DNA from: a virus
Virus record (IMG/VR): IMGVR_UViG_3300020183_000007
Location: 64,001-128,000 of that record
DNA length: 64,000 nt
Reading direction: 5' to 3' (one strand)
Under the pieces are notes generated by a model. The model worked only from the letters and a program-made list of their open reading frames with translations, had not been told where the DNA came from and made no database searches. A program made the position numbers and the translations under genes. Numbering within the stretch: the stretch's first letter is position 1; each line of letters opens with the position of its first letter. This document shows, in pieces, positions 27,834 to 51,127 of the stretch.

Positions 27834-28853
27834 ATGACAGAAGAGACAGTAGTGGCGGAAAATGAAAACGCATTGGCAAGTAAAAAAGTTTTGAAAGAGG
27901 ATTCAAAAGCTTTAGAGCTTGCAATCGCACAACTGCAGAAGCAGTATGGTTCAGGGGCAGTTATTAAACTTGGTTCCACTAATGTAAAACCTTGGGCTTC
28001 AATTCCCACTGGAGCCTTAACCCTTGACCATGCTCTTGGTATTGGTGGGTTACCACGTGGTAGAGTCGTAGAAATATTTGGTCCAGAGTCTTCAGGTAAG
28101 TCTACCATTGCTCTTACTGCTGTGGCCAAAGCTCAAAAAATAGGCCTTACATGCGCCTATATCGATGCTGAGCACGCTCTTGACCCAGTGTATATGCAGG
28201 CCGTTGGAATCGATTTGGACAACCTCTTGCTAGCTCAACCAGACTATGGCGAGCAAGGTTTTGATATTGCCGATACATTGCTGCGTACAGGTGATATTGG
28301 CCTGATTGTCATTGATTCTGTTGCGGCACTTGTTCCTAAGGCTGAGCTTGAAGGGGAAATGGAGCAACAACAGATGGGCTTACAGGCACGCATGATGGCA
28401 AAAGCTATGCGAAAGCTAACGGGATTAGCTGCTCAGCATAATACTTTAATTATTTTTGTTAATCAACTAAGAAATAAGATTGGTGTAATGTTTGGTAATC
28501 CAGAAACAACGCCTGGGGGCTTCGCTTTAAAGTATGCAGCCTCTGTTCGAATTGATGTGCGCAAGAAAGAAGATTTGAAGGACAAGCATGGTGATCCGAC
28601 TGGTATTAGAGTCAAAGCTAAAATCATCAAGAATAAAATGGCTCCGCCGATGAAGATAGTGGAATTTGATATTATGTATGCTCGGGGCATCGATGAGTTT
28701 GGTTGCATCTTCGATCTTGCAATTAATAAAGGAATTCTTAATCAAAAGGGCCCATGGGTTTACTATAATGGAGAAAACTTTTCTCAAGGGCGAGATAATG
28801 CTATTGAAAAATTAAAAAGTTCTCCAGAAATAGTGAGTATAATAAAAGGCTAA
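27834..28853 (+). CDS. recA: RecA recombinase
   Basis: IPTGALTLDHALGIGGLPRGRVVEIFGPESSGKST, YIDAEHALDP, IDSVAALVPKAE, NQLRNKIG, ETTPGGFALK. Confidence 0.97.
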   Translation: MTEETVVAENENALASKKVLKEDSKALELAIAQLQKQYGSGAVIKLGSTNVKPWASIPTGALTLDHALGIGGLPRGRVVEIFGPESSGKSTIALTAVAKAQKIGLTCAYIDAEHALDPVYMQAVGIDLDNLLLAQPDYGEQGFDIADTLLRTGDIGLIVIDSVAALVPKAELEGEMEQQQMGLQARMMAKAMRKLTGLAAQHNTLIIFVNQLRNKIGVMFGNPETTPGGFALKYAASVRIDVRKKEDLKDKHGDPTGIRVKAKIIKNKMAPPMKIVEFDIMYARGIDEFGCIFDLAINKGILNQKGPWVYYNGENFSQGRDNAIEKLKSSPEIVSIIKG

Positions 28854-31901: not shown

Positions 31902-32026
31902 CAAAGCACCTGGTAGGGCAGGTGCACAAAGAGTTGTTCCCCTGGGATCTTCGGATCCTGGGGGAACTTCTTTTTTGAGGATAGGCATCCAGCCATGTCC
32001 ACTGCACCAAAGAAAGGAGGTGTGCA

Positions 32027-32119
32027 ATGTTGCAGATTCCGATGTACATCATCGGGATCAGCGTCATCCTCTTTGCACAGGTCACGTTTTTCGTGGATCT
32101 GTTCAAGAAGAAGGACTGA
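32027..32119 (+). CDS. 30-aa membrane peptide
   Basis: AAGGAGG RBS; MLQIPMYIIGISVILFAQVTFFVDLFKKKD. Confidence 0.6.
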   Translation: MLQIPMYIIGISVILFAQVTFFVDLFKKKD

Positions 32120-32312
32120 TCTGAAACTGCCACGACACGGGTGGCCAAGCAGTAGTGACGCTTGGGAACAGAATAATCACTAAAAGAAATTGGTTCCTTC
32201 GGGAATCTTTTTCTTTGAGGATAGGCCATTCTCCTCATCTGGCTGCCGGAAGTTAGGCATAAGACCAGCGTCCCTTGTCAGGATGTAAGTGCACCCAGCG
32301 TGCCTAAAAGAC

Positions 32313-32348
32313 TACGTAATAATCACGTCCGGTACGTTAAGCCGAGAC
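32313..32348 (+). ncRNA. Leader hairpin/pseudoknot motif, copy 1 of 5 (others 33397-33430, 35025-35058, 40957-40994, 42054-42091)
   Basis: GTYCGG-TACGTTAAG-CCG(A)GAC hairpin with upstream ACGT(A) complementary to the loop; always 10-25 nt before a start codon. Confidence 0.6.
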
Positions 32349-32371
32349 ACTTTCAGATTCAGGAGGAATCA

Positions 32372-32677
32372 ATGGGAGTAAAACTTCCTAGGTGCATCCG
32401 TGCGCGTCGGATCGGGCATTGGAGCTATGGCTCCGACACCTTTTTCGACGCGAACGGGAACAAGGCGCCGGTGACCTGGACCTGCAACTGCGGGTCCAGG
32501 ATCACCCTGGAGGTATACGACTGCCAGACCGGCGAGTACACCGACACCCCCAAGGAACTGCTGCAGGCGTTCCTGGCAGAGCACACGGCTTGTGTGGCCA
32601 TGTGCTACAACTGCCGAAAGGTGGAGGTGGAGCGCCAGGGATACTGGTGCAACGAGTGCGAGGCCGAGCACTACTGA
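32372..32677 (+). CDS. Cys-rich (Zn-binding) hypothetical protein
   Basis: AGGAGG RBS before ATG 32372 (the longer track start overlaps the leader motif); CNC, CYNC, CNEC. Confidence 0.65.
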   Translation: MGVKLPRCIRARRIGHWSYGSDTFFDANGNKAPVTWTCNCGSRITLEVYDCQTGEYTDTPKELLQAFLAEHTACVAMCYNCRKVEVERQGYWCNECEAEHY

Positions 32678-32801
32678 CATCCAGGCTGATGAGCCCAGCC
32701 TGAAGAAAAGAGGAGTTCTCTCCTACGCATCCAGCGTAGGGGGAACTTCTTCTTTTGACAATAGACCTGCGAACAGCAAGTAACAGGTCGGAAAGGAAGC
32801 C

Positions 32802-33242
32802 ATGAACGTCAATGCCATGAACCTTATCACCAAATACACAGGAGCCATCTCCATTGTTTGGGATGGTGAAGCGATTACTCAGGTAACCCTGGGTATCGGT
32901 ACCAAGCACCAGAGGACGGTCTCCAGGTCGTACCTGGAGGACGGTCAAATCATCTTCTCACGGGAAGATGCCCCTTCCGGGACCATCTGGCCCTTGAGCA
33001 GGCAAGAGCTGGAGGAGATCGCCCTCATGGGTGGCGTCGTGATGCTCCATGCCGATGACCTGTATCGGCTCGTTGTCCTCCCTGAGTGGTGGACGGTGGA
33101 GTGCGAAATGGCCATTGAGGGTGAATGCCCTGAGTGGCCATTAGCAGAAGAAGAGTCCCCCAAGTCCCTTGGGGAAGTAATGCTTGAAATGATCCAGAGG
33201 ATCATTGAGGAGGCAGACGATCCAGATCAATGGGACAAGTAA
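32802..33242 (+). CDS. Hypothetical acidic protein
   Basis: GAAAGGA RBS; flanked by cassette motif and terminator. Confidence 0.7.
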   Translation: MNVNAMNLITKYTGAISIVWDGEAITQVTLGIGTKHQRTVSRSYLEDGQIIFSREDAPSGTIWPLSRQELEEIALMGGVVMLHADDLYRLVVLPEWWTVECEMAIEGECPEWPLAEEESPKSLGEVMLEMIQRIIEEADDPDQWDK

Positions 33243-33451
33243 TGCTGAAACCCCGGGGGTCGAAAGGTCCTCGGGGAATCTTTTTCTTTGAGGATAGGCC
33301 ATTCTCCTCTACGCAGAGCCTGAGCGTATAATAAATCATGGGTGACGCAGCAGGAGCTAAATGCCTGACAGGTTATCTTACCTTGACAAAAGAGAAACGT
33401 AATCATCATGTTCGGTACGTTAAGCCGGACAACAAATGATTCGGAGGAATC

Positions 33452-34027
33452 ATGAACGAGTTCTTGTTCAAGGTCTTCGTGGTCTTTCTGACCACGCAGA
33501 CCAACCTAGCACGGGCCCCCTGGGCCAAGTGGCTAGGCCACTGCTGGGGGGAGACCACCCAGCACATCGTATACTACTTCGTCACGGGCAAGCACATGTG
33601 CTGCCCCTGGCGGGAAGTCCCACCGGTCGCATGTGGGCATGCGCCCACCTGCGACGAGTATTACTACCAGGCGCTGGACCTGGAGGTGGCCATGGAGGCC
33701 GCTTTCAAGTCCGGTGCCCTAGAAGAGTACACCTACGACAGCCTGATGGCTGCTCTAAGTGACCAGTACCTGGTGCTGAAATGCGCCAAGTTCTGGTTGG
33801 ACAAACAGGGCACCATCGCCGGTTTTCCGGCCATGGCCGCCCTGAACGAATTTTTGGAGGATAACAACATGATCCTCCGGGATAATGGCGGACTGATGTC
33901 GGGTGCCCCCCAGCATCAGTACGCCAAGAAGACATTGGTCTTCTCCTCGGACAAGGCGTTCGAGGAGGAGGCCAAGCTGTGGCTGAAGATCCACAGCGCG
34001 CAACTTAGGGGCTTCAACAACAGCTGA
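33452..34027 (+). CDS. Hypothetical protein
   Basis: GGAGG RBS; 191 aa; cassette context. Confidence 0.7.
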   Translation: MNEFLFKVFVVFLTTQTNLARAPWAKWLGHCWGETTQHIVYYFVTGKHMCCPWREVPPVACGHAPTCDEYYYQALDLEVAMEAAFKSGALEEYTYDSLMAALSDQYLVLKCAKFWLDKQGTIAGFPAMAALNEFLEDNNMILRDNGGLMSGAPQHQYAKKTLVFSSDKAFEEEAKLWLKIHSAQLRGFNNS

Positions 34028-34147
34028 CCCAGAAAGGCTGATGAGCCCAGCCTGAAGAAGAGAGGAGTTCTCTCCTACGCAACCAGCGTAGGGGGAACTT
34101 CTTCTTTTGACAATAGACTTCTGAAACCAAAGTAAGAGGTCGGAAAG

Positions 34148-34474
34148 GTGACCATGTTGGTCAATCTCACCCCCCACCAGATCACTCTGGTGGATGACCT
34201 GGGTAACATTATCCAGGTTGTTGAGCCGGAGGCAACTTCGGCTCGGTGCTCCTCGGAGCGCCAATTCGCCTTCGAGGCGGACAGCATCCGGGTCAACCGG
34301 ACTATGTTCGGAGAGGTTTCAGGCCTCCCGGACGAGGTAAACGGGACGTGGTACATCGTGTCACGTATCGTTGCCGAAGCGTCGGGCCGGTCGGACCTGA
34401 TCATCCCGGATGAAACAGTTCGGAATGCCGAAGGACAGATTATCGGCTGCAAGTCGTTCGCGACTTTGGGCTGA
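34148..34474 (+). CDS. NLTPH-motif small protein (candidate Crn4-like ring nuclease)
   Basis: VNLTPH...LP...YIVSRIVA...RSDLIIP...VRNAEGQIIGCKSF family signature. Confidence 0.55.
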   Translation: MTMLVNLTPHQITLVDDLGNIIQVVEPEATSARCSSERQFAFEADSIRVNRTMFGEVSGLPDEVNGTWYIVSRIVAEASGRSDLIIPDETVRNAEGQIIGCKSFATLG

Positions 34475-34512
34475 TCTGATGTCAAACAACAATTCACCGA
34501 AAGGAGGTGAAC

Positions 34513-34785
34513 ATGAAGAAGCATCCAAAGCGGGTGTACGTCTTTAGGCGTGCGCTCGTTCTGGTCCTGGCAGTTTTCTTTGCTGCAGCGGCCTACGGAA
34601 TGTACGAAGAGCTTACGGGCCCTTCGTACGAGTGCGAGCAAGCACCCGTGGTCGTTGGGCAGGGAGACACTCTCTGGAGGATCGCTGAAAAGCGATGCGA
34701 CGGAGATTTGCTGGAGGTCCGGTACAAGCTGGTGAAGTCCTACGGGACTAATATCCGGCCTGGACAGGTCATTCAGCTGCCCTGA
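34513..34785 (+). CDS. Membrane-anchored LysM protein
   Basis: Basic N-terminus + TM helix, VVGQGDTLWRIAEK...IRPGQVIQLP. Confidence 0.85.
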   Translation: MKKHPKRVYVFRRALVLVLAVFFAAAAYGMYEELTGPSYECEQAPVVVGQGDTLWRIAEKRCDGDLLEVRYKLVKSYGTNIRPGQVIQLP

Positions 34786-34801
34786 GACCAGAGCCTACTG
34801 T

Positions 34802-34928
34802 GCACCTACAGACAACGATGATCTGTAGGGTGTAGCGGGGTTTTGCACCCTGGGAACAGAAGCGGGGGGGTCGGCAGTGGGCCGGCTCCCTGTTCTGTTT
34901 GAGGAAATCTCTTTTTTGAGGATAGACC
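34802..34928 (+). ncRNA. 127-nt structured element, copy 1 (copy 2 at 40079-40205)
   Basis: Three hairpins; differences between copies fall in loops or convert A-U to G-U. Confidence 0.55.
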
Positions 34929-35080
34929 ATTGTCCTTAGCGCAGAACCTGAGCGCTATATAAATCATGGGTGACGCAGCAGGAGCTAAATGCCTGACAGG
35001 TTATCTTACCTTGACAAAAGAGAAACGTAATCATTATGTTCGGTACGTTAAGCCGGACAACAAACGTTCACGGAGGAATC

Positions 35081-35347
35081 ATGAACGTAAACAAGAACAA
35101 GATCACCCTCGTGGTGACAGCAATCATCTGTGTGCTCCTCGTTCTGGAGCCCACCAGTGAGCTGACGGTGGGGATCATCTCCCTGCCGATCAAGGCCTTC
35201 TTCACGATCCTGGGCTTCGGCTTCGGCCTCGTGAACTGGCCCATGCTCACAGTCGTTGTGATTGGAGCGGGAATCGCCTTCGTGGCGAAAACCCGTACGG
35301 TCGATTGGACCGTCGTTAAGAGCTTCTTCCGCTCGGAAGAAAGCTGA
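35081..35347 (+). CDS. Small membrane protein
   Basis: GGAGG RBS; 2-3 hydrophobic helices. Confidence 0.7.
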   Translation: MNVNKNKITLVVTAIICVLLVLEPTSELTVGIISLPIKAFFTILGFGFGLVNWPMLTVVVIGAGIAFVAKTRTVDWTVVKSFFRSEES

Positions 35348-35480
35348 CTATACCTGGTGATGAGTCCACCAGATGAGCAATGGGATTGTTTTCCCCGGGG
35401 ATCGAAAGGTCCTCGGGGAAACTTTCTTTTTTACCAATAGGCCCCCGAACAACCGAAGGGGTCGGAAAGAGAGGAAGGTA

Positions 35481-35663
35481 ATGAACATCAAGGGCGTGGA
35501 GGTCCTCTCGTACGAGGAGTACGAGGGTATGCTCCATAAGGTGGTGACACGATACAAGGTCGTGGGCACGACCTTCGGGTTCAACCGCTTTCAGGCGGGC
35601 CCCTTCCAGACGAAGGGAGAGGCAGAGAAGTTCGCAGCTCTTCTGACTCTTCTGAGGGGCTGA
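35481..35663 (+). CDS. Hypothetical protein (60 aa)
   Basis: GAGGAAGG RBS before ATG 35481. Confidence 0.6.
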   Translation: MNIKGVEVLSYEEYEGMLHKVVTRYKVVGTTFGFNRFQAGPFQTKGEAEKFAALLTLLRG

Positions 35664-35825
35664 CGAACTTTGTGGGGCACCGTCTTACCCGGCGCATCTG
35701 CTTAGACGGGTCATAGGGCAAGGATAGTTTTCCCCCGGGGTCTTAACGGACCCTGGGGGAAACTTTCTTTTTTACCAATAGGCCCCCGAACAACCGAAGG
35801 GGTCGGAAAGAAAGGAGAAATCCGC

Positions 35826-36203
35826 ATGAAAGTTGTAACATGGTTGTCGTCCACGATGGACCCAACCAAGGGAGTAGCTCCCGGTAAGTGCGTATTCACC
35901 GGTGAGTACCCAGGGGTGTTTTGTGTCCCCTTCGTAGAAGATGGGACGCCTGGAAAGGCACTCAATGATTTCTGGCACTCACCCCGGTATGCCAGAGATC
36001 TTCAAGTGATCCTTGAAGTTCCAGTGGAAAATCTCTTCTTCCGGCTCATGGGCCAAGAGAAGCCACTTCCGATTTACAAGGACGGACGAGTGGCCATCAA
36101 TCTCATCATCAATAAGTGTTTTGATGATGATAATGCAATAATCATCAAGAACTTCGATCCTGCGTGGATCGTTTCTATCAGAAAGGAAGAAAACAATGGA
36201 TAA
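35826..36203 (+). CDS. Hypothetical protein
   Basis: AAGGAG RBS; overlaps the next gene. Confidence 0.65.
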   Translation: MKVVTWLSSTMDPTKGVAPGKCVFTGEYPGVFCVPFVEDGTPGKALNDFWHSPRYARDLQVILEVPVENLFFRLMGQEKPLPIYKDGRVAINLIINKCFDDDNAIIIKNFDPAWIVSIRKEENNG

Positions 36204-37680
36204 CTACTCAGAGGGATGGAAGGCCCTCAAGGAGTTTGAGCAGAAGTTCTGCTCTGTCATGGCCTCCGAGGTCGAAATGTCGATCCGGGAGGGAGATTCT
36301 GAGGTAGTTGGCTCAGAATTGGTTTACAACCACTCCTACATGCCCATCCCCCAATACAGGAACGGAAGGGTGAGGGCCAACTTTGAGATGGGTGATAAAC
36401 TTCACCTGGTCCACCAGAGGCTGGAAACGCCCGGAAAGGGCAGGGTCAAGTGGGCTCTGCGAAGCTTCCACAGTATCCTCGAATGCGAGGATGGGCGCTA
36501 CATGCCCAAGAGTCGGTACCTGAAGGAAGTCAAATTCGCAGTCAATCCAACAGAGGATGGCTACCGATTTCAGATCCTGAAGACACAGGGTGGCAAAACT
36601 CGCGTTTACTGGGGGTATAACACCATTCATTCAGGACTCCTGCAAGAATTTGTCCATATCTCACTGCGAACAGCGGCAACGAAACTCATTGGTCAATATA
36701 TGGATCCGCAAAGGATTCATGCAGTGTTGCAGTGGTTTTCCTACGAACAAACAAAGTATCCCGAGTACTTTGCTAGTGACAACCCTGCGAGTCGTCAATC
36801 GCAAGAATTGCAACTTGGCGGACCGGGATGGTCCCGTATCCTGACCGGTAAGACCGGCGCAAAGGACATCCTGAACGGGATCTATGACCCCAAGGGTATC
36901 AGAAGGATTCCTAAGAATGCCTTCGGTGGCGTCGGGGAAATCAGGACTTTGGACCGTTTAGCCAAAGCGGTTTTCATGACTCGTGCGCTGCGCAGTCTTG
37001 ATCCGCACACCTTTGGCGAAGTTAGTAGTGTATGGCCAGACAGACCGATAAATTATAAGTATGAGGGATCATTTGAGAAGGCCGACAAGATTGATTGGCT
37101 TGTCAATAAACTTCCGAAACTCATTTCTGTAAAGAACATTCAGGAATGTCAGACTCCATATACATACATGGAAGACACAGTCAGGATGCTCAAGCAAATG
37201 CCACGAACACTGCGTTCTGCATGTTTGACTGAGATCCGCAGAAATGCAGCTAGAGGCATTGAATGGGCACACGACTTTGTCGCAACTGAACATGCAAAAG
37301 TTGGGAAAGAGAACAAGGACATCAATGTCAGTGCACTCAGTAAGTTTGAGGGAACTGTCAATGATGACATTGCGTGTGTAGTTCCCAAGTGCACTCACGA
37401 TTTGGTTCAGTGGGGCGCTGAGTACAACATTTGCATTGGCTCATATGCAGATGAAGTTTACAATGGCAGTACTTACTGCATGGGGTTCCAGAATCCCCAG
37501 ACTAAGACCTTTTATGGTTTTGCACAGGTCAACCCGTGGGACGGACATCTTCTCCAGCTATTGGGTAAGCACAACAACCATCTTCCTGATGTGGAGAGGC
37601 TTGCAATTGAGCGTTACCTGGTAACGCTTGGTGTCAATGTTGATAATTACTGGGGCAAGCCCCTTGTTGCACTTAACTAA
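36196..37680 (+). CDS. PcfJ-like domain protein, paralog 1
   Basis: C-terminal DLVQWGAEYNICIGSY...G...FAQV...QLLGKHN motif. Confidence 0.65.
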   Translation: MDNYSEGWKALKEFEQKFCSVMASEVEMSIREGDSEVVGSELVYNHSYMPIPQYRNGRVRANFEMGDKLHLVHQRLETPGKGRVKWALRSFHSILECEDGRYMPKSRYLKEVKFAVNPTEDGYRFQILKTQGGKTRVYWGYNTIHSGLLQEFVHISLRTAATKLIGQYMDPQRIHAVLQWFSYEQTKYPEYFASDNPASRQSQELQLGGPGWSRILTGKTGAKDILNGIYDPKGIRRIPKNAFGGVGEIRTLDRLAKAVFMTRALRSLDPHTFGEVSSVWPDRPINYKYEGSFEKADKIDWLVNKLPKLISVKNIQECQTPYTYMEDTVRMLKQMPRTLRSACLTEIRRNAARGIEWAHDFVATEHAKVGKENKDINVSALSKFEGTVNDDIACVVPKCTHDLVQWGAEYNICIGSYADEVYNGSTYCMGFQNPQTKTFYGFAQVNPWDGHLLQLLGKHNNHLPDVERLAIERYLVTLGVNVDNYWGKPLVALN

Positions 37681-37688
37681 GTCTGGCA

Positions 37689-37740
37689 GCCCCTACCCCT
37701 TAACTGGGGAGGCATAGTGGTTCGATTCCACATAGGGGCA
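37689..37740 (+). ncRNA. Anticodon-arm-less tRNA-like element (52 nt)
   Basis: Acceptor GCCCCTA/TAGGGGC + A73, D-arm CCTT-AACTGGG-GAGG, T-arm GTGG-TTCGATT-CCAC; only 3-4 nt where the anticodon arm should be. Confidence 0.65.
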
Positions 37741-37781
37741 CTGTTCGCAATCCCGCGGACTATAACATGATTGGAGAAATC

Positions 37782-38117
37782 ATGAAGAAGAAAGTTGAGT
37801 GGTGCGGATGCATGGACGTCCGTTCACCGAAAGAAGGGTTCAAGGACATCTTCTCGAAAGAGTTGGTGGACGGGAAACCACGAGGTGAACTTTGGGAGCT
37901 GATGGAAGTGAAGAGTTGGGAAGAGTTCAAGGATGAACTCTCCGACATTTCCTGGGGAATTGGCCGAATCATTGGCGGATTCCGTGGCAAGGCGTACGTG
38001 CGTGTGCCTGGGGATCGAATTCACTACGAGAAGGTTGTGAACCGAATTGAGGATTATGGCTGCATCCGCAGCAAGAGGTTCTTGATTGACGGACACTGCC
38101 CGAACGAGGGTAAGTAA
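37782..38117 (+). CDS. Hypothetical protein
   Basis: GGAG RBS before ATG 37782. Confidence 0.6.
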   Translation: MKKKVEWCGCMDVRSPKEGFKDIFSKELVDGKPRGELWELMEVKSWEEFKDELSDISWGIGRIIGGFRGKAYVRVPGDRIHYEKVVNRIEDYGCIRSKRFLIDGHCPNEGK

Positions 38118-38294
38118 AGAAAGAAAGGTGGCCCCGGGGAATTCGCCTCGGGGCCTTTGACTGAAAGGAGAACAGTAAGACGAACTACCGTACTGATCAG
38201 AAAAAAGGGGTCTGTTCCCGGGGAGAAATCCCTGGGAACTTTCTTTTTTGAGGTTAGACCTCTGAAACCAAAGTAAGAGGTCGGAAAGGTCGTC

Positions 38295-39734
38295 ATGACC
38301 GATTTCTACTCCAAGGGCTGGAAGGCCCTCAAGCAGTTCGAGCAGCAGTTCTGCTCGATCCCTGAGCGTGATGCCCAAGACACCATACTATCAGCACCCT
38401 TTCAGACATACTATCGGGGCGATACCGATGGGTCGACATTGGTGCACAACACCTCGTACCTGCCCACACCAGGGCCTTATGGTGTCTGTATGTGGGAAAC
38501 CGGTGACAGGATACACCTGATCCACACGCGGCTCGACCTTCAGCCGGCTGGCAAGGTCAAGTGGGCGCTGCGAAGCTTCCACGGCATCTTGCAAATGGAT
38601 CCGACCATAGGGCGCTACATGCCCAAGAGTCGGTACCTGAAGGAAGTCAAATTCGCAGTCAATCCAACAGAGGATGGCTACCGCTTCCAGATTTTGAAGA
38701 CACAGGGTGGCAGAACCTGTGTCTATTGGGGATATGATCCGGAGAAGTTGATGCAAGAAATCGGCGATCCGGAGATGTGGAGAGCGGCGCGCAACGTCGT
38801 TTACAAGTATCTGATTCCGGATCAGATGTATAAAGTGTTGCAATGGTTTCGTTCGGAAAACCCCGTAGAGGAAACCGAACAATTGCGACTTGGTGGACCG
38901 GGATGGTCACGGATTTTGACTGGTAAGACCGGCGCAAAGGACATCCTCAACGGGGTCTATGACCCGAAGGGTGTCAGAAGGATTCCTAAGAACGCCTTTG
39001 GTGGTGTAGGGGAAATTCGAACCCTTAACGCTTTGGCAAAAGCGGTCTTCATAACTCGTGCGTGGCGCAGTCTTGATCCGCACACCTTTGGCGAAGTTAG
39101 CAATGCTTTGTCAAAGGATTTTCGTCTTGTCTATAATGGGTCATTTGAACAGGCTGACAAAATTGATTGGCTTGTCAGTAGAATTCCCAAACTGCCTATC
39201 GGTAGGGAGGAAAACTTTGAATCTATTGACCTTTTGTCCATTGAGGACATGATCACAATGCTCAAGCAAATGCCCCGAGCTTTGCGTTCTGCGTGTTTGG
39301 CTGAAATACGCAGAAGCGCAAATCGGGGTATGCAGTGGGCACACGATTACGTTGTCCTTGAGTTTAACAAACTGAAAACAGCCGACAAGGTAATCGAGCA
39401 GGATGAGCTCAGCCGGTTCGAGGGAACTGTCAACGATGACATGATTTGCGTGGTCCCGAAGTCCACCCATGATTTGGTTCAGTGGGGGACTGAGTACAAC
39501 ATCTGTATCGGTTCATACGCAGATCGCGTGTACCGTGGAAACACCTTGTGTATGGGGTTCCAGAACCCTCACACCAAGAGTTTCTACGGTTTTGCGGAGG
39601 TCAATCCGCAGAACAAGAAGCTTGTCCAACTGCTGGGCAAGTACAACCACAGTCTTGATAATCTGGACAAGCTTGCCATTGAGTGTTATCTAACCTCGAA
39701 GGGAGTTGGTGTTGATTTCTATCGGGGTAAATAA
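38295..39734 (+). CDS. PcfJ-like domain protein, paralog 2
   Basis: Colinear with 36196-37680 including identical peptide blocks (YMPKSRYLKEVKFAVNPTEDGYRFQILKTQGG). Confidence 0.65.
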   Translation: MTDFYSKGWKALKQFEQQFCSIPERDAQDTILSAPFQTYYRGDTDGSTLVHNTSYLPTPGPYGVCMWETGDRIHLIHTRLDLQPAGKVKWALRSFHGILQMDPTIGRYMPKSRYLKEVKFAVNPTEDGYRFQILKTQGGRTCVYWGYDPEKLMQEIGDPEMWRAARNVVYKYLIPDQMYKVLQWFRSENPVEETEQLRLGGPGWSRILTGKTGAKDILNGVYDPKGVRRIPKNAFGGVGEIRTLNALAKAVFITRAWRSLDPHTFGEVSNALSKDFRLVYNGSFEQADKIDWLVSRIPKLPIGREENFESIDLLSIEDMITMLKQMPRALRSACLAEIRRSANRGMQWAHDYVVLEFNKLKTADKVIEQDELSRFEGTVNDDMICVVPKSTHDLVQWGTEYNICIGSYADRVYRGNTLCMGFQNPHTKSFYGFAEVNPQNKKLVQLLGKYNHSLDNLDKLAIECYLTSKGVGVDFYRGK

Positions 39735-39837
39735 CAAGTTTTTCCCCGGGGATCGGCAGAAATGCTGGTCCTCGGGGAAACTTTCTTTATAGGCATCCAG
39801 CCATGTCCACTAAACCAAAGAAAGGAGGTGAACAAAC

Positions 39838-40062
39838 GTGTTCAACACACGAATCCCTCTTTCGAACGGATCGTACATCTCGTTGGCCCAAAACGAAATG
39901 TGCGTCCTCAGAGAGGAGTTCGTCCCCACTCTGGAGTGGGCGGGTGTCGAAACGCAGGATGATATCCTGCGGTTCGATAACCTGTCAACACTCCGGACGT
40001 TGTTGGATAAGGCGGAAGCCTGGAGTCTGAAGACTCCGGATCCGTCTTCCGACAACTCGTGA
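39838..40062 (+). CDS. Hypothetical protein
   Basis: AAGGAGG RBS, GTG start. Confidence 0.6.
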   Translation: MFNTRIPLSNGSYISLAQNEMCVLREEFVPTLEWAGVETQDDILRFDNLSTLRTLLDKAEAWSLKTPDPSSDNS

Positions 40063-40272
40063 CGACGAACGCAACTGCGCACCTGCAGACAACGATGATC
40101 TGTAGGGTGTGCCGGGGTTATCCACCCTGGGAACAGAAGCGGGGGGGTCGGCAGTGGGCCGGCTCCCTGTTCTGTTTGAGGAAATCTCTTTTTTGAGGAT
40201 AGACCGACCGGGTCTACCTACGGTCCCAGCACAACAGGATCTAACCAATCCGCTGGGAGAAAGGGAGGCATC

Positions 40273-40545
40273 ATGCAGAAGCTGCCCAAGCGAGTGTACG
40301 TCAAAAGGCGTATCCTCGTGGCTGCTCTCACGGTGTTCTTTCTGATGGCCGGATGTGGCATGATCAAGAAAGTGACGAGCCCCTCGTTCACTTGCCCGGA
40401 TCGCACCCACACGGTTCTTCAGGGGGAAAGTCTCTGGACCATTGCTGAAAAGCATTGCGACGGAGACCTGCTCGCTGTACGTTACCATCTGACACAGGCC
40501 TACGGGCCCGTGATTCAGCCCGGTGACGTCATCGAGCTGCCTTGA
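40273..40545 (+). CDS. Membrane-anchored LysM protein, paralog of 34513-34785
   Basis: KRVYVKRR + TM + HTVLQGESLWTIAEK...IQPGDVIELP. Confidence 0.85.
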   Translation: MQKLPKRVYVKRRILVAALTVFFLMAGCGMIKKVTSPSFTCPDRTHTVLQGESLWTIAEKHCDGDLLAVRYHLTQAYGPVIQPGDVIELP

Positions 40546-40757
40546 CGGCAAGTCGGCTCACTGAACCAGCAGTAATCTGGGAAGTCGCAACACACGACTA
40601 AAGATAATAACTCATATGAAGTTGGCATTGGTTACTTGCCTTATATAAGTATGAGTGAATTATTATGTGTTTTATTTGTGGGGAAACCCCGGGACTCGTA
40701 TCGATCCGAAGGGCACACCGATGGGTGTGTAATTCGTGCGAGTTCTGGGGTTTTCTC

Positions 40758-41019
40758 TTTGAGGATAGACCGCATCCTCAAGGTGACCGTGCTTTAGTCA
40801 CACGCCCCTCGTTAGGGGAAGGGCCGTAGGGCCAAGACATCGCACAACTACCGACCCACAACCATGTGAGTGGGACCTAATGGGGAACTGATGGGAAAAC
40901 TGAGCCACATATTCGCTCAGCCAGAAGGAAACCAGAAGGTGAGAAAATCATGAGAAACGTGGAATCAGCCCTGTCCGGTACGTTAAGCCGAGACACCAAA
41001 GGAGGAGGTCCGCATGGAC
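40758..41019 (+). repeat. 262-bp direct repeat (second copy 41855-42116): structured 5' leader
   Basis: Copies identical except one A/G; run from the TAGAC motif to the ATGGAC start. Confidence 0.9.
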
Positions 41020-41343
41020 CTGATCATAAAATTCGTCACCTACGTGGTGGCGGGTAAGTACAACGACCTGGTGGGTTTCGGCCCCCAGATCGTCGTCAAC
41101 GGAAAGCCGATCACGCTCGAGGCGTGGGTCCCCCGCAACAAGAAGGCTCGCAAGGGCTCCGAAGTCACGGGAACTCCCACCATCGAGGTTGAGGAGGGCA
41201 CTCAAATCACCAAGTCCTACACAAAGGACGGGGTGGAGGTGCTCCTGCCGGTCTGGAAGTTGCGGGTTGTGGTAAGCGGGGACTACGAGTTCTCGCAGCC
41301 GAAAACCGTGTCCCTCCAGGATTTCTTCAGGGACAACGTCTGA
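41014..41343 (+). CDS. Hypothetical protein (cassette payload A)
   Basis: GGAGG RBS; ends FFRDNV. Confidence 0.7.
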   Translation: MDLIIKFVTYVVAGKYNDLVGFGPQIVVNGKPITLEAWVPRNKKARKGSEVTGTPTIEVEEGTQITKSYTKDGVEVLLPVWKLRVVVSGDYEFSQPKTVSLQDFFRDNV

Positions 41344-41434
41344 CACCAATTCCGACGGTAAGCGGTCAACCGTCGGACAAGGAGGAGCCCCCTATCAAGG
41401 GGGTTTTCTCTTTGAGGATAGACCATTGGGGTCA
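41323..41434 (+). repeat. ~112-bp direct repeat (second copy 42453-42565): ORF tail + terminator + next motif
   Basis: Near-identical including the last codons FFRDN. Confidence 0.85.
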
Positions 41435-41459
41435 ATCTACAACAGAAAGGACAAGGGTG

Positions 41460-41810
41460 ATGATGTGTAATCACTTTTTAATGCTGCAGATGATGCAGCA
41501 GGCGGTGGAGGTTCTTCGTGAAAGGAAGAGTCCTCCAAAGAAGTGTGTTTCCCCAACCACCGGTAAGTTGATGGTGGAGTGGGGCATCTGGCGTAAGTTC
41601 TACGCCAAGATGGGCGTTTCTTCAGTAGGAAAGCCTTACATCATGATCTCGTTCCCGAAGCCTGTAACTAGGCACGAGGATGGGCATGAATACGGCCACG
41701 ATTACATCATGTGGCTGAATCCAAAGCAAGGGTCCATGACCTGCCCGAATTGCAGGAAAAAGTTGATTGACAGCAAGCTCGTTAATGAGCTAAGTGAGGT
41801 TGTTCAATAG
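41460..41810 (+). CDS. Hypothetical protein with CPNC
   Basis: GAAAGGA RBS; cassette context. Confidence 0.65.
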   Translation: MMCNHFLMLQMMQQAVEVLRERKSPPKKCVSPTTGKLMVEWGIWRKFYAKMGVSSVGKPYIMISFPKPVTRHEDGHEYGHDYIMWLNPKQGSMTCPNCRKKLIDSKLVNELSEVVQ

Positions 41811-42110
41811 AGGTTTTCCCCGGGGATCGAAAGGTCCTCGGGGAAACTTTCTTTTTTGAGGATAGACCGCATCCTCAAGGTGACCGTGCTTTAGTCACAC
41901 GCCCCTCGTTAGGGGAAGGGCCGTAGGGCCAAGACATCGCACAACTACCGACCCACAACCATGTGAGTGGGACCTAATGGGGAACTGATGGGAAAACTGA
42001 GCCACATATTCGCTCAGCCAGAAGGAAACCAGAAGGTGAGAAAATCATGGGAAACGTGGAATCAGCCCTGTCCGGTACGTTAAGCCGAGACACCAAAGGA
42101 GGAGGTCCGC

Positions 42111-42473
42111 ATGGACTACATCCACACCCTCATGGACATCTGGCGGGCGATCTGCTGGTCCATCCGCTTCGGCGGAGAAGGTCAGCAGAAACTCGACAAG
42201 AAGGGGCGGGAGTTCACCTCCTATTCCTTCGTCACCGAGGGCAACAGGGGTGTCCAGCCCAAGTCCGTGGTCGTGTACACGGGCAAGAAGGGGAACATCA
42301 CCGTGATGGCTAACATCAGCGCCCTGCGCAATGATGGCCAGCGGTACCCCAGGTCTGTCAAGTTCCTTCTCAAGAACTTGAACGAGGAGAAGTTCTTCCT
42401 CGTATGCGGTAAGACCCGCATGTACGACCACTACAAAGTGGATTATCCGGAGTTCTTCAGGGACAACGCCTGA
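42111..42473 (+). CDS. Hypothetical protein (cassette payload B)
   Basis: Same leader as payload A; ends FFRDNA; interior unrelated to payload A. Confidence 0.7.
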   Translation: MDYIHTLMDIWRAICWSIRFGGEGQQKLDKKGREFTSYSFVTEGNRGVQPKSVVVYTGKKGNITVMANISALRNDGQRYPRSVKFLLKNLNEEKFFLVCGKTRMYDHYKVDYPEFFRDNA

Positions 42474-42587
42474 TCCACAATTTCGACGGTAAGCGGTCAA
42501 CCGTCGGACAAGGAGGAGCCCCCTATCAAGGGGGTTTTCTCTTTGAGGATAGACCATTGGGGTCAGTCCAAAACAGAAAGGAAAGTC

Positions 42588-42782
42588 ATGGCAAAGAAAA
42601 TCATGAAGCTGGGCGAAAACGCCGGAGAGTGCGTGATCGATCAAAAAGATCGGTACACGGTTCTCACCTTCGATCAGAAGGAAGCAGCCGACAAGTTCGC
42701 CAAGAGCAAGGGCGTTCAGGTTCAGACGAAGATCGTCGGCGCAGCGAAGGTTCGTTCCTTCGTCGTCATCGTCAAGAGCTGA
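42588..42782 (+). CDS. Small basic protein
   Basis: GAAAGGA RBS before ATG 42588. Confidence 0.65.
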   Translation: MAKKIMKLGENAGECVIDQKDRYTVLTFDQKEAADKFAKSKGVQVQTKIVGAAKVRSFVVIVKS

Positions 42783-42881
42783 TCAGAAAAAGGGTCTGTT
42801 CCCGGGGAGAAATCCCTGGGAACTTCCTTTTTTGAGGATAGGCTACTGGGGCTAGTCCAAAAAGAAAGGTAAGGTTATGTC

Positions 42882-43418
42882 ATGGATAAAATGAAGAAAT
42901 TCTTCACAATCGTCGGAACTGGGTCTCGCAGCCTGGTGGAAGACGAAGAAAAGTTCAACAAGGTGCTTGCACACCTCACTGAACTTCTTGGCAAGGCAAA
43001 AGCCAAGCATGGAGAGAACCTTCTGGTCATCTCTGGCATGGCTGAGGGTTTCGATGAAGCCCTTGCCAAGGCTGCAATGGCAAACAGCGTTCAGCTGCTG
43101 GCAGCTATCCCCAATCGGGGGTACAGCAAGTATTACTGGAAGGATCACAGTATGACTGGTTTCGACCGGTACTCCTCTTTCCAGGAGCTGGCAAGGTATG
43201 CCAATGAAACAGGTGGGGTTGTTTACACCTGTGGATGCATCAAGGATCAACCCACAAAGTGTGGACACTGGGATGGGCGGATCTACAATTTCAAGCGAAA
43301 TGAATGGATGCTTGAGCGTGCCGACATTGTCTGGGTTTACAACCCGACGAGCAAGGGGACTGCTCACGCATACGGACTGGCTCGCAAAGCTGGTATTCGC
43401 ACCCACATCATTCAGTAA
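42882..43418 (+). CDS. SLOG superfamily (YspA-like) protein
   Basis: IVGTGSR, VISGMAEGFDEALAKAA, RNEWMLERADIVWVY...SKGTAH. Confidence 0.75.
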   Translation: MDKMKKFFTIVGTGSRSLVEDEEKFNKVLAHLTELLGKAKAKHGENLLVISGMAEGFDEALAKAAMANSVQLLAAIPNRGYSKYYWKDHSMTGFDRYSSFQELARYANETGGVVYTCGCIKDQPTKCGHWDGRIYNFKRNEWMLERADIVWVYNPTSKGTAHAYGLARKAGIRTHIIQ

Positions 43419-43552
43419 AGGAGGACAAATGGTCGTCCCCGGGGATCGAAAGGTCCTCGGGGAAACTTTTCGTCTTTTGAAAGAGATAGTCCCAGAAATA
43501 TTAATTAATACCATAGTCCTTGAAACAAAAGTAAAGGATAGAAAGGAGAGTC

Positions 43553-43759
43553 ATGGCTTACAACTATGACAATCGCAATTGCAATAAGTGTGGTGAGTTT
43601 CACTACAAAGGTGAACTAAGGTACCACGGGTTCATACCCGGCAAGGGAGACTATTTCACCTGCAAGAAATGTGATGAAGTAAAAGCTGCCATCAAGAAGA
43701 ATGTGAAAATCAAGAAGGAACGAGAGGCCTTGAAGGCTTCTCAGCCTACATTGTTCTGA
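43553..43759 (+). CDS. Small Zn-ribbon protein
   Basis: CNKC...CKKC; AAGGAG RBS. Confidence 0.6.
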   Translation: MAYNYDNRNCNKCGEFHYKGELRYHGFIPGKGDYFTCKKCDEVKAAIKKNVKIKKEREALKASQPTLF

Positions 43760-43951
43760 TGCCAACGTCTGGTCCCGGGGGGTGTTTACTCCCCGGGATA
43801 AGGACTTTAACAAAGTGATAGATTTATAATTAAAGTTATATAGTTTTTGGACTAGAACCCTAGTCTTTAGTTTGCGGGCATGACTAGTCCGTATTCTAAA
43901 CTCGAGTTAGGGACAGACACAAGGTCGTCCTTTGAGCCCTAGGAGGGTGCT

Positions 43952-44353
43952 ATGAAGACATACCAAATCAACCATGCGAGTTGGGTCGTGGGGCCCTTCG
44001 GGGAGTTCGGGACCCTGCTTGCGAACCCGGTCGGGCACCGTGAGGAACAGCAGGTGGACAAGATTGCCATCAGGGTCAACGACAAGGAGACCTACAAGAC
44101 CGCACAAAGCTGGCTGGCGGAGCTGAAGGACACGGACTTGGTGCTGACCGCTACCGCGGAGTTCAACCCGGTGCACCTCAGCAACGGTGACATCGGATTC
44201 ACCAAGGATCGCTGGGAGGACAAGAAGACCGGCGAGAACCGCGTGCAGGCTTCGCTGTACATCGGGTTCGCCACCGAGCCCAAGTGGGACATCATCAAGA
44301 AGCCGAAGGTCAACACCCTCGGCAACCTCAAGGAGCTTCGGCGCCCCGAGTGA
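43952..44353 (+). CDS. Putative OB-fold ssDNA-binding-like protein
   Basis: AGGAGG RBS; RWEDKKTGENR resembles the SSB L45 region; weak. Confidence 0.4.
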   Translation: MKTYQINHASWVVGPFGEFGTLLANPVGHREEQQVDKIAIRVNDKETYKTAQSWLAELKDTDLVLTATAEFNPVHLSNGDIGFTKDRWEDKKTGENRVQASLYIGFATEPKWDIIKKPKVNTLGNLKELRRPE

Positions 44354-44528
44354 GAGGCACAAGAGCAGTCGGGGACCCTTCGGGGTTCCCGGCTGTCTCA
44401 GCCTCAAAAAATACCATGTAGTTCCTTCAGTTCTAGCAGGGTCGTTGAATACGCGAGGTTTCGTTGAATACGCGAGGTTTCAGAAAGTTCTAAAAACTCA
44501 GTAGACCTACAAACGCTGGGAGGCGATC

Positions 44529-44702
44529 ATGACAAACAAGGAAATTCTGCAGGCTGCTCAAGCAATTCTAAATGAAATGCGAAAGCGTGAAGGCGGAGAG
44601 TCTCACAACATCTACGAGAAAGCAGAAGTTTTATTCATGGCAATCAGCAAAGCCTATCCCTGTGATATGGGAGAAGTGAAAGAAAAAGGAGGCTCACAAT
44701 GA
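44529..44702 (+). CDS. Hypothetical protein (57 aa)
   Basis: GGAGG RBS; ATGA overlap with the next ORF. Confidence 0.55.
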   Translation: MTNKEILQAAQAILNEMRKREGGESHNIYEKAEVLFMAISKAYPCDMGEVKEKGGSQ

Positions 44703-44842
44703 GCGACATTCAGGAAGCCCTCGAACAAAAGATCAAAGAGCTCCGCGAGATGGCACGAAATGCCAACTCCATCGCGGAGTCCCTCCGCCTCCACGCTGAG
44801 GCGTGCATCCTGGAGGAGCGACTCATCCACCTGGATGACTGA
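44699..44842 (+). CDS. Small coiled-coil protein (47 aa)
   Basis: GGAGG RBS; followed by a long terminator hairpin. Confidence 0.55.
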   Translation: MSDIQEALEQKIKELREMARNANSIAESLRLHAEACILEERLIHLDD

Positions 44843-44945
44843 TCTCCCCCTTGCTGAGAGTTCCTCGGTATACCTTCGGGTGTATCGGGGAACTCTCCGC
44901 GTAAAAAAGCTCTAAAAACCCACTAGACTCATAAGGAGTACTGCA

Positions 44946-45266
44946 ATGACAACTTTCATTTGGACGTGCATAGCGTTTGCGCTTGGTTTCTTAAGCTACA
45001 TAGGATATTGCCAAGTCCGACATATTGTTTCAGCGCGACTCAACTACGGCAAGCCCGTGTTGCTTGACGGCGAAAAGATTGGTTCAGTCATTTCGCTCCG
45101 TCACGACGGTTGCAAACGATACGTATTTGTGGATTATGATTATTGCTTGAATACTGATGTGCTTTATTACACCGCAGACGATGCCACAAATGCAATCAAG
45201 TGTGCGTATATCGCAATCATAAACAAGCGAAACCGAACAGCAACAAAACTCCACCACGCCATCTGA
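44946..45266 (+). CDS. Hypothetical membrane-anchored protein
   Basis: AAGGAG RBS; N-terminal TM helix. Confidence 0.65.
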   Translation: MTTFIWTCIAFALGFLSYIGYCQVRHIVSARLNYGKPVLLDGEKIGSVISLRHDGCKRYVFVDYDYCLNTDVLYYTADDATNAIKCAYIAIINKRNRTATKLHHAI

Positions 45267-45276
45267 TTCCAAACTC

Positions 45277-45723
45277 CACTAGGGGAGTATAAACCGATTT
45301 AAGCCTAGTGCGTTCCCCAGGTAACCCTGGGGAGGTATCTGAGTATCCACCTACATTCCAGTGTAGGCCCTCGCTCAAAGCCCCGGCGTTGAGAAAAATG
45401 GATAGAGATCTGGATAATCTCTATGGAATATTATAACATTTGACGGTCCCCAAGTGTTATAAGAACTCACTGTATCAGGCGGAAACCTGATCATATAGTG
45501 GATACAGGTATAATGTGGTATCAGTTCTGCATTATACCCACTAACGAACTGAAGGTCTCTCCGTAGATAGCTGACCAAAGCATTAGGGCATACCCCGATG
45601 TAGGATTGACGAATCCATTCTACCGTTGAAAATAATCTCAGGCAACGTATTACCTGAGTACCGGGAGTTCCCAGTCCCCGAAGGATGTCAGAGATTGTAC
45701 CAATATTGGTATAATCAACTGGG
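45277..45723 (+). ncRNA. Candidate large structured ncRNA (~450 nt)
   Basis: No RBS-backed ORF; about ten stems, a long-range GTATCCAC/GTGGATAC helix and a CAGTTC/GAACTG pseudoknot; strand assumed from neighbouring genes. Confidence 0.5.
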
Positions 45724-45872
45724 CGGTTCTAAAATTTTCCCTACCTTTGCATGGCGCCTCCCGGTGGTCCTGCTCGCTCCTATACCAGCGAGTGGGCCAC
45801 TGGCGCCATGAATTTCACATTCTAAAAAATACTGCAAAGTCCTCAAATCTACAGCACAAACAAAGGAGCGTA

Positions 45873-46079
45873 ATGCGCGAACAAGCAAGAGCCCGTCCCA
45901 GATGTTCAGTAGAAACCTTAAACTTGCTACAGCAAGTCGAAATCGCTATTAGATTCTGGGAATCAGAAGGCGAATTAACGCACTTGATTAAAGCAATGGC
46001 AGAAAAAGAGCAACTTCTCAAGCAAGCGCTTGAAGAATCTCGTAACTGGGCCAAAGCTAATACTGCTATAAATATCTAA
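45873..46079 (+). CDS. Hypothetical protein
   Basis: AAAGGAG RBS before ATG 45873. Confidence 0.55.
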   Translation: MREQARARPRCSVETLNLLQQVEIAIRFWESEGELTHLIKAMAEKEQLLKQALEESRNWAKANTAINI

Positions 46080-47479: not shown

Positions 47480-47510
47480 ATGAGTTTGCCCGTTCTCATC
47501 AAAAACGGGC
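47480..47510 (+). ncRNA. H-type pseudoknot (homologous copy at 60307-60338)
   Basis: ATGAG-TTT-GCCCGTT-CTCAT-CAAA-AACGGGC; compensatory changes in both stems between the two copies. Confidence 0.75.
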
Positions 47511-47514
47511 GCTA

Positions 47515-47589
47515 GGGGATGACAGGCGTCGACACAAGGAAAAGCCAAAGTGCACCTTGTGGAACTGGGTTCGAATCCCAGCATCTCCA
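47515..47589 (+). ncRNA. tmRNA tRNA-like-domain mimic lacking the mRNA-like domain (75 nt)
   Basis: Acceptor GGGGATG/CATCTCC-A with G3:U70, stemless D-loop ending TCGA, helix CACAAGG/CCTTGTG closed by a 15-nt loop, GAA linker, T-arm CTGGG-TTCGAAT-CCCAG. Confidence 0.75.
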
Positions 47590-47713: not shown

Positions 47714-47980
47714 ATGAATCAGAACAACATGATCAATTTTGTTACGCTTACGGGCCTTGACGACGAAAGAACTGAAGTTAACCCAGCCAGCATCGTAATG
47801 ATGCAAAGAAGCACCTACGCCCAGTTGCCATGCACTAATGTGTGGCTAATGTTGGGCATCCCATATAAAGTAGTGTGTCGCGAGACACCAGAAGAAATTG
47901 TTCAATTGCAGATGGATGCAATTGGTAAACTCGTGAAAAAGTGCATCAATGTCTTTGAAGAATTAGAAAAGGAGATGTGA
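47714..47980 (+). CDS. FlbD/SwrD-like small protein, paralog 1
   Basis: INFVTLTGLD...EVNPASIVMM...VRETPEEI pattern; true start at ATG 47714. Confidence 0.55.
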   Translation: MNQNNMINFVTLTGLDDERTEVNPASIVMMQRSTYAQLPCTNVWLMLGIPYKVVCRETPEEIVQLQMDAIGKLVKKCINVFEELEKEM

Positions 47981-50713: not shown

Positions 50714-50787
50714 GCTTCCGTAGCTCAGTCGGATAGAGCATCGGACTTCTAATCCGCAGGTCGCAAGTTCGAATCTTGCCGGGAGCA
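50714..50787 (+). tRNA. tRNA-Arg (anticodon TCT), CCA not encoded
   Basis: Full cloverleaf GCTTCCG/CGGGAGC, D-arm GCTC/GAGC, loop CTTCTAA, T-loop TTCGAAT; TGCTATAAT promoter at 50694-50702. Confidence 0.95.
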
Positions 50788-51127
50788 CTATGGTTTATAC
50801 AAAGCTTTGGCTTAACCAATATATCTATAATGCCCATTTATCCAATTACAATTATAATAAGGACCCTAATGCATATTACTTTCAATATTCCTAATAGCGA
50901 TGTTAAAATTACTAAAGATATTGTCAGAACTTTTTGATTTTCAGAAATAAGTTTTGACATTTTAAATGTCGGTTGGTCTCTGTGAGGGTACGTTCTCAAT
51001 CGCCCCCACCGAGAACGCTCATGATCAGAGTTTAGCCTCCTTTTAACGAAGATCATTTTGCGTATTTACGCAAGCAGGGATCAACCGGCAGCTGGTTCAT
51101 ACAAACACATGAATCAGAAAGGCAATT

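Follow-up and report, generated by a model that had tools for sequence, protein, structure and literature searches.

A predicted gene for a tag-less mini-tmRNA of the DS6A type in a large uncultured phage

What can a phage RNA do that has kept the tRNA-like domain (TLD) of tmRNA and nothing of its message? Almost all bacteria have trans-translation, which is a drug target, and a small RNA that phages of many host groups carry to act on it would be a natural tool to probe or block ribosome rescue. The question is raised by a locus in the window, i.e., the whole 64,000-nt stretch of DNA that was analysed, which is part of a 179.6-kb record of an uncultured phage (IMG/VR, 85% complete). The record encodes terminase, portal, tail-fibre and helicase genes, and its terminase is distantly related to the terminases of large Bacillus and Moorella phages. 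A preliminary description had taken the locus for a stand-alone tmRNA TLD without an mRNA-like domain. On the sequence evidence presented below, it encodes a phage mini-tmRNA, TLD-only and tag-less, of the type known from mycobacteriophage DS6A, and this RNA is likely to interfere with ribosome rescue and protein tagging in the host. RNAs of the DS6A kind are already known, if under-annotated; what is new here is a further member, for which we infer a function.

Layout and identity of the element

The Rfam tmRNA model (RF00023, cut-off 47 bits), which the preliminary description had named as a check, matches the element (Table 1) across model positions 1–374 with 54.6 bits (E 1.1e-18) in both the whole-window and the whole-genome scan, and scores 46.0 bits, just below the cut-off, in a small-region scan with other filters; in every run, tmRNA is the top family of the tRNA clan. 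The MFE fold is exactly the acceptor/P2/T-arm structure, with a z-score of −1.74 that is not significant alone, and the family model R1, which was built from viral sequences (see below), matches the element with 74.3 bits. The Rfam alignment, the MFE fold, R1 and the covariation within the family together bear out the assignment to a stand-alone TLD. All of the hallmarks listed beforehand are present at positions 47515–47589, from the GGGG start, G3:U70, A73 and the stemless D-loop with UCGA to P2, the linker and the T arm, and the claim that a 15-nt loop takes the place of the pseudoknots and the tag reading frame agrees with the Rfam alignment, in which 310 model positions are absent.

Table 1. 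Coordinates of the mini-tmRNA, its segments and the surrounding features (window positions unless a contig is named).
Feature	Position	Strand	Basis or remark
Upstream ORF, 339 aa	46453-47472	+	no Pfam/PHROG family
Leader H-type pseudoknot, 31 nt	47480-47510	+	second genomic copy, compensatory changes
Predicted mini-tmRNA (TLD-only), mature body to discriminator A73	47515-47589	+	Rfam RF00023, R1, MFE fold, covariation
Acceptor stem GGGGAUG/CAUCUCC, 7 bp	47515-47521 / 47582-47588	+	sequence, MFE fold
G3:U70 pair	G47517:U47586	+	
D-loop analogue ACAGGCGUCGA, 11 nt, unpaired, UCGA at end	47522-47532	+	
GGCGUCGA, counterpart of E. coli tmRNA G13-A20	47525-47532	+	aligned to Rfam consensus
Helix P2 CACAAGG/CCUUGUG, 7 bp	47533-47539 / 47555-47561	+	
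Apical loop AAAAGCCAAAGUGCA, 15 nt	47540-47554	+	
Linker GAA, 3 nt	47562-47564	+	
T arm, 5 bp, loop UUCGAAU	47565-47581	+	
Discriminator A73	A47589	+	
Downstream ORF, 88 aa, 125 nt past the RNA	47714-47980	+	no family match
tRNA-like RNA behind second pseudoknot, 105 nt	60348-60452		
tRNA-like RNA, ~130 nt	L140:1789-1920; L142:1785-1914; also L151, L155, L159, L163		

Two other assignments were tried and rejected. A canonical tRNA (RF00005) is at odds with the unpaired D region and with a sole other arm that carries a 15-nt loop, and ARAGORN is silent: it calls neither a tRNA nor a tmRNA at the locus and reports no tag peptide. A mitochondrial tmRNA (RF02544) was dismissed, since the element is one-piece, in standard order and phage-encoded; the tmRNA_permuted model scores only 11.8 bits.

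With bacterial tmRNA (RF00023), the element shares the whole TLD, the SmpB-contact nucleotides and the AlaRS identity set. However, the pseudoknots (PK1–PK4 in the Rfam alignment), the resume codon, the tag reading frame and the stop codon of bacterial tmRNA are all absent, with only 15 nt between the P2 strands, and an RNA that has neither resume codon nor tag frame cannot add an ssrA degradation tag. With tRNA-Ala it has in common G3:U70, A73 and the T arm, and probably the RNase P, CCA-adding and AlaRS steps, but it lacks a D stem and an anticodon arm. The CDS-less tmRNAs of jakobid and oomycete mitochondria and of Mallomonadaceae plastids (RF02544; PMC11915505) are likewise reduced to the TLD, and are presumed to depend on SmpB and to work without tagging, as is supposed for the window element. 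These organellar RNAs usually stem from permuted two-piece genes and co-occur with a dedicated nuclear SmpB, whereas the window element is viral and one-piece and must borrow the SmpB of its host.

The apical loop, which replaces PK1–4 and the tag reading frame, carries the motif GCC-R-A-W-G-Y-GC. When compared by eye to the E. coli ssrA segment GAAACCCAAGGUGCA, which lies just after P2a, it matches at 12 of 15 positions, and we infer that the two are homologous and that the mini-tmRNA arose from a tmRNA by internal deletion. On the 3′ side, CCA is not encoded (A-CUG); the gene is followed by C and then non-CA bases, and 3′ trimming and CCA addition are therefore needed. The same holds for six of the eight ordinary tRNA genes of the phage, which are also followed by C plus non-CA bases (e.g., window 50714–50788), CCA being encoded only in tRNA-Thr and tRNA-Ser. 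A full-length tmRNA was not found in the phage genome by the whole-genome Rfam scan, and weak matches of the tmRNA model elsewhere in the genome were rejected as ordinary tRNAs.

A covarying family of viral mini-tmRNAs

A search pattern for the TLD layout matched 78 viral contigs with 53 distinct sequences of 59–80 nt. Forty-three of the longer viral sequences, including that of the window and leaving out DS6A, make up alignment A1, from which RNAalifold recovers three helices with compensatory changes at 12 of 19 pairs. The covariance model R1 was built from A1 and aligned 80 matches, 76 of them distinct. In these 76 relatives, 97.7% of the pair cells are paired compared to 65.7% in shuffles, and the covariation score is 0.771 compared to 0.149 in shuffles, none of 500 shuffles reaching the observed score; controls in which the family alignment was slid all stay at or below 0.10. 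The alignment was fitted to the model and is thus biased toward the model structure; given how large the effect is and how low the slid controls stay, there is nevertheless little doubt that the family structure is well past chance. Because the scan patterns forced the UCGA of the D-loop and the T loop, the invariance of these two is no independent evidence.

The covariation also bears on the idea that the phage once captured the ssrA gene of a host, of which the element would be a decaying remnant, or that the element is an attP site for integration into ssrA. Indeed, integration at ssrA is common, and prophages can contain fragments of this gene (PMC9004378). However, an attP site would hold the 3′ part of ssrA alone, whereas in 76 distinct sequences a covarying helix connects the two halves of the TLD. 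Moreover, a tyrosine integrase (PF00589) was not found in the phage genome, in DS6A some 10 kb separate the element from the integrase, and the DS6A TLD is clearly unlike a Mycobacterium tmRNA TLD. An origin of this sort is therefore considered extremely improbable.

Family members come in a short form of 59–70 nt, in which P2 is closed by a small loop, and a long form of 73–81 nt, in which an A-rich stretch is followed by a mini-hairpin or by GCC-R-A-W-G-Y-GC and then by 1–3 nt. The window element is of the long form with the motif, which occurs in 12 of the 76 distinct sequences, and its segment layout is common to DS6A and 74 further distinct sequences. A single viral contig (L102) carries two copies 1.2 kb apart: the first (5–81) has a degenerate T loop and scores 45 bits, the second (1317–1392) scores 55.9 bits. 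An Achromobacter MAG contig (L091:3823–3902) holds an 80-nt TLD-only element that reaches 91.2 bits on the Rfam tmRNA model, far more than other family members, and has a TLD near that of bona fide proteobacterial tmRNA; a full-length tmRNA was not found in this MAG, and the element may be a recent deletion derivative.

Strict pattern scans of viral collections yield 78–105 matching contigs, and the same pattern matches 10 contigs, all of them MAG, in 185,579 prokaryotic species genomes (one per species). The covarying family is thus almost confined to viruses, where the GC content of the loci ranges from 29 to 65%. ARAGORN makes no call at any of the family loci tested, and since it misses every tested case, the family has been overlooked in phage annotation. 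When the region was compared by BLAST to cultured phages, no match was obtained, and the 78-nt element itself matches only the T arms of tRNA and tmRNA genes. Four records matched by BLAST were rejected as family members, as they score 19–37 bits with R1 and are ordinary tRNAs; likewise, a candidate second member at G000:26185–26241 (R1 21.8 bits, no acceptor pairing) was dismissed as a chance match.

A phage precedent for such an RNA has been published: “Mycobacterium phage DS6A (TLD only)” is listed with a sequence that is “little more than the TLD” (Hudson, Lau, Williams, PMC4131195). The 2025 tmRNA database holds nine standard-form “no CDS” sequences among 97,179 and names one phage case (PMC11915505), whereas the pattern scans find about a hundred viral contigs. 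In the DS6A genome, R1 has a single match, at 28478–28557 between gp33 and gp34 (59.3 bits); as R1 was built without DS6A and yet finds the DS6A gene, the window element can be assigned to the DS6A type. Both RNAs (DS6A: tmID 11587) are one-piece and 75–80 nt long, with a GGGG acceptor, G3:U70, A73, a stemless D-loop analogue, a 7-bp P2, an A-rich apical part, a T arm and a 3-nt linker with a central A, and CCA is encoded in neither. They differ in the apex, which is a CCG/CGG mini-hairpin in DS6A and the GCCAAAGUGC motif in the window element, and in the leader pseudoknot that precedes the window gene, unlike that of DS6A. The carriers differ as well: DS6A is a 60-kb temperate mycobacteriophage, whereas the phage of the window is about 180 kb in size and has no detected integrase. 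The preliminary description pointed to protist mitochondria as a source of TLD-only tmRNAs but overlooked DS6A, and with this precedent the element is less novel than had been implied.

In the covariance-model alignment, G1:C72, G2:C71 and G3:U70 are each found in 76 of 76 sequences, while the pairs 4:69, 5:68 and 6:67 are variable. As the first pattern had fixed GGGG and UCCA, the two strands were released in turn. With the 5′ strand released, the extra sequences keep G3 and never have A at this position, though U70 pairs with both; with the 3′ strand released, 79 loci are found compared to 78 when UCCA is required, and the extra locus is merely truncated at its end. That the first three pairs are kept while the following ones vary indicates that the alanine identity set is under selection, and its strict retention points to selection on charging and not on SmpB binding alone. 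The conserved identity set therefore argues that charging would matter, beyond the simple titration of SmpB that has been published.

A second set of conserved nucleotides concerns SmpB. In E. coli tmRNA, U17 and A334 form a pocket for Trp122 of SmpB, and mutation of G19 abolishes SmpB binding (PMC8363625). According to the alignment with the Rfam consensus, U47529 is the equivalent of U17 and G47531 that of G19, and A47563, the central A of the linker, is the equivalent of A334; these three nucleotides make up the predicted SmpB-binding elbow. The linker A is invariant in 43 of 43 sequences of A1 and in 76 of 76 distinct sequences and was forced by no scan pattern, whereas the equivalent of A15 is variable across the family and is a C in the window element. 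Alanylation and SmpB binding of the mini-tmRNA would thus fit the retention of G3:U70 and A73, of the U17 and G19 equivalents, and of the invariant A334 equivalent.

An acceptor identical to that of the window mini-tmRNA (GGGGAUG/CAUCUCC with G3:U70 and A73) also occurs in an ordinary cloverleaf tRNA of Gordonia phage Evaa, annotated as tRNA-Arg(tct) (L144:729–798), in which an alanine-identity acceptor is combined with an Arg anticodon.

Possible roles during infection

SmpB, RF-1/ArfB, Pth and RtcB were not found in the phage genome, and the RNA must therefore work with host factors. The most probable account, to which we give moderate confidence, is that the mini-tmRNA accepts alanine, associates with SmpB of the host and rivals tmRNA at stalled ribosomes, thereby suppressing ssrA tagging. 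RNase P and 3′-end enzymes of the host would release the RNA from a longer transcript, and host enzymes would also supply the CCA end, so that the AlaRS of the host could charge it with alanine. It would then bind SmpB and EF-Tu of the host and vie with the host's own tmRNA both for SmpB and for ribosomes that have stalled on non-stop mRNAs; the net result would be that trans-translation and tagging are suppressed during infection. As related in PMC4131195 and PMC11915505, a DS6A-like molecule strongly inhibits tmRNA in E. coli whether chargeable or not, perhaps by titration of SmpB (Mao et al., 2009). This agrees with the first of the roles proposed in the preliminary description, the titration of host trans-translation. 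If the inhibition does not require chargeability, as these accounts have it, pure SmpB titration would not explain the strict retention of G3:U70 and A73. Moreover, the benefit that a phage might draw from blocked ribosome rescue is not evident, which speaks against the competitor hypothesis.

The strict alanine identity set suggests that charging is selected and not SmpB binding alone, and is thereby a point in favor of a different role, namely productive rescue without a tag, in which the ribosome would be released and not trapped. The alanine-charged mini-tmRNA would enter stalled ribosomes together with host SmpB and take over the nascent chain, and the resulting peptidyl-RNA would leave by drop-off with Pth or by release of the ArfB type; where mRNAs have been cut in the course of infection, the ribosomes stalled on them would be recycled, and their products would not be marked for degradation. 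Peptidyl transfer to a TLD-only tmRNA does occur in vitro, according to the account of Shimizu and Ueda (2006) in PMC3895274. Furthermore, mitochondria and some plastids retain CDS-less tmRNAs along with SmpB (PMC11915505), and rescue of this kind is the presumed function of the mitochondrial ones. However, ribosomes would have to be released without a stop codon, the phage encodes no release or hydrolysis factor, and no conserved protein partner lies near the family members; in the accounts cited above, inhibition of tmRNA is the sole in vivo effect reported for such an RNA. Tag-less rescue is therefore regarded as possible but rather doubtful.

A third role would have its target outside the ribosome: the RNA could be a decoy that occupies or misleads host factors sensing, cleaving or using tmRNA or tRNA-like RNAs, for example restriction systems with SmpB-like domains (CoCoNuTs) or nucleases of tRNA and tmRNA. 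The SmpB-like domains of CoCoNuTs are predicted to bind tmRNA, and tmRNA is reported to be the commonest repair target of RtcB (PMC11090510). DS6A encodes an RtcB-like ligase, and a family that is virus-specific and moves among unrelated phages would suit a decoy. However, the case is circumstantial: conserved defence-related neighbors are lacking, the phage of the window has no RtcB, and the alanine identity set is not obviously needed. A decoy function is thus highly unlikely.

The wider proposal that phage mini-tmRNAs are charged, SmpB-dependent RNAs for tag-less rescue or anti-defence, and not mere inhibitors, is a tentative one that we would not expect to hold. If the proposal were true, ribosomes on mRNAs cut by nucleases of the phage or of host defence would be freed and their products spared; alternatively, mini-tmRNAs would replace or shield host tmRNA that has been damaged by defence systems. 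Together with the exchange of cassettes described below, there would then be a wider, unannotated class of phage RNAs that mimic tRNA and reprogram translation quality control.

Transcript, leader pseudoknot and swapped cassettes

The mini-tmRNA starts 42 nt past the stop codon of the upstream ORF, which has orthologues (about 90% identical) in three related contigs. In the stretch between this ORF and the RNA, neither a sigma-70-like promoter nor an intrinsic terminator was found, and the mini-tmRNA probably shares a transcript with the upstream ORF. This arrangement could mean that the element is a processing signal only, at which cuts by RNase P and RNase Z separate two mRNAs, fixing where the upstream one ends and where the downstream one begins, with no function of the released RNA itself. 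Many family members occupy gaps between ORFs and have a start codon with its ribosome-binding site 10–40 nt downstream, and about one third lie within 1 kb of tRNA genes, which would be in line with such a signal. However, any tRNA-like fold would do as a cleavage site, and the tmRNA-specific D-loop, the linker A, G3:U70 and A73, kept in loci of 29–65% GC, would be left unexplained. That the element serves as a signal alone is accordingly quite unlikely, and competition with host tmRNA is retained as the preferred role of the RNA.

Between the ORF and the mini-tmRNA lies an H-type pseudoknot, which begins 8 nt past the stop codon and is separated from the RNA by 4 nt. It consists of S1 (AUGAG/CUCAU), S2 (GCCCGUU/AACGGGC) and an A-rich linker. 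The only other copy in the genome, at 60308–60338, has compensatory changes in both stems. An exact-pattern scan found the pseudoknot in 13 viral contigs (including L152–L162), with the general layout S1, UUU, S2 (NCCGUU), S1′, A-rich linker and S2′. S1 covaries among them, its variants being AUGAG/CUCAU, ACGAG/CUCGU, ACACA/UGUGU, UCAG/CUGA and CUAG/CUAG. In most of the 13 contigs, the pseudoknot is located 8–25 nt before a start codon, and in two viral contigs a U-run and a sigma-70-like promoter come after it. The Rfam wcaG RNA is a weak and partial match (17.7 bits), and its 3′ part has the same layout. Judged by pattern and position, the pseudoknot may be an undescribed cis-regulatory or terminator element of phages. 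It was rejected as a feature specific to the mini-tmRNA family, the other members of which have unrelated flanks.

The second pseudoknot copy precedes another tRNA-like RNA of 105 nt, directly past a ParB-like gene (59224–60246). In this RNA, a T arm (AGAUGG / UUCGACU / CCAUCU) is combined with an acceptor of 5 bp that includes A3-U70; Rfam and R1 both fail to match it. The three related contigs, two of about 194 kb and one 78-kb fragment, have kept the leader pseudoknot, and R1 has no match anywhere in the three records. In two of these (L140 and L142), the slot of the mini-tmRNA behind the pseudoknot is taken by a different RNA of about 130 nt, which is also found in four further contigs (Table 1). 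This RNA combines a GGGGCU acceptor (G3:U70) and a T arm with a degenerate D-loop AAUGGUUACAAG and two internal hairpins, and holds no conserved ORF. It is matched by neither Rfam nor R1, and may represent a diverged tmRNA-like frame with a different interior. In L141, the slot contains a different sequence without a recognisable T arm.

Conversely, the closest relatives of the window element as an RNA are 91% identical to it outside P2 and the apex, and lie in contigs of high GC content that otherwise have next to nothing in common with this genome. Another tRNA-like RNA in the slot of the relatives and kin of the RNA in unrelated contigs indicate that the mini-tmRNA is a mobile, swapped cassette. 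Its absence from close relatives means that the gene is dispensable in this phage lineage, which is a further point against the competitor hypothesis. In the family as a whole, flanks are unrelated from member to member, and clustering of the ORFs within 3 kb of the 78 family loci revealed no shared protein partner; the neighbors are ordinary phage genes (ParB-like, terminase, portal, DnaB, ERF, methylase, GP88).

Two further observations concern the region upstream of the gene. At window positions 32000–46000, the GC content is 0.50–0.54, compared to 0.32–0.42 elsewhere in the window, and the mini-tmRNA, with a GC content of 0.55, is located where the GC content of this block falls off. A match to the Pistol self-cleaving ribozyme (window 45273–45340, 48 bits at a cut-off of 34.5) lies some 2 kb before the mini-tmRNA, in a structured region with few ORFs; the match is kept in the related contig L141 at 1897–1964 with 65.3 bits.
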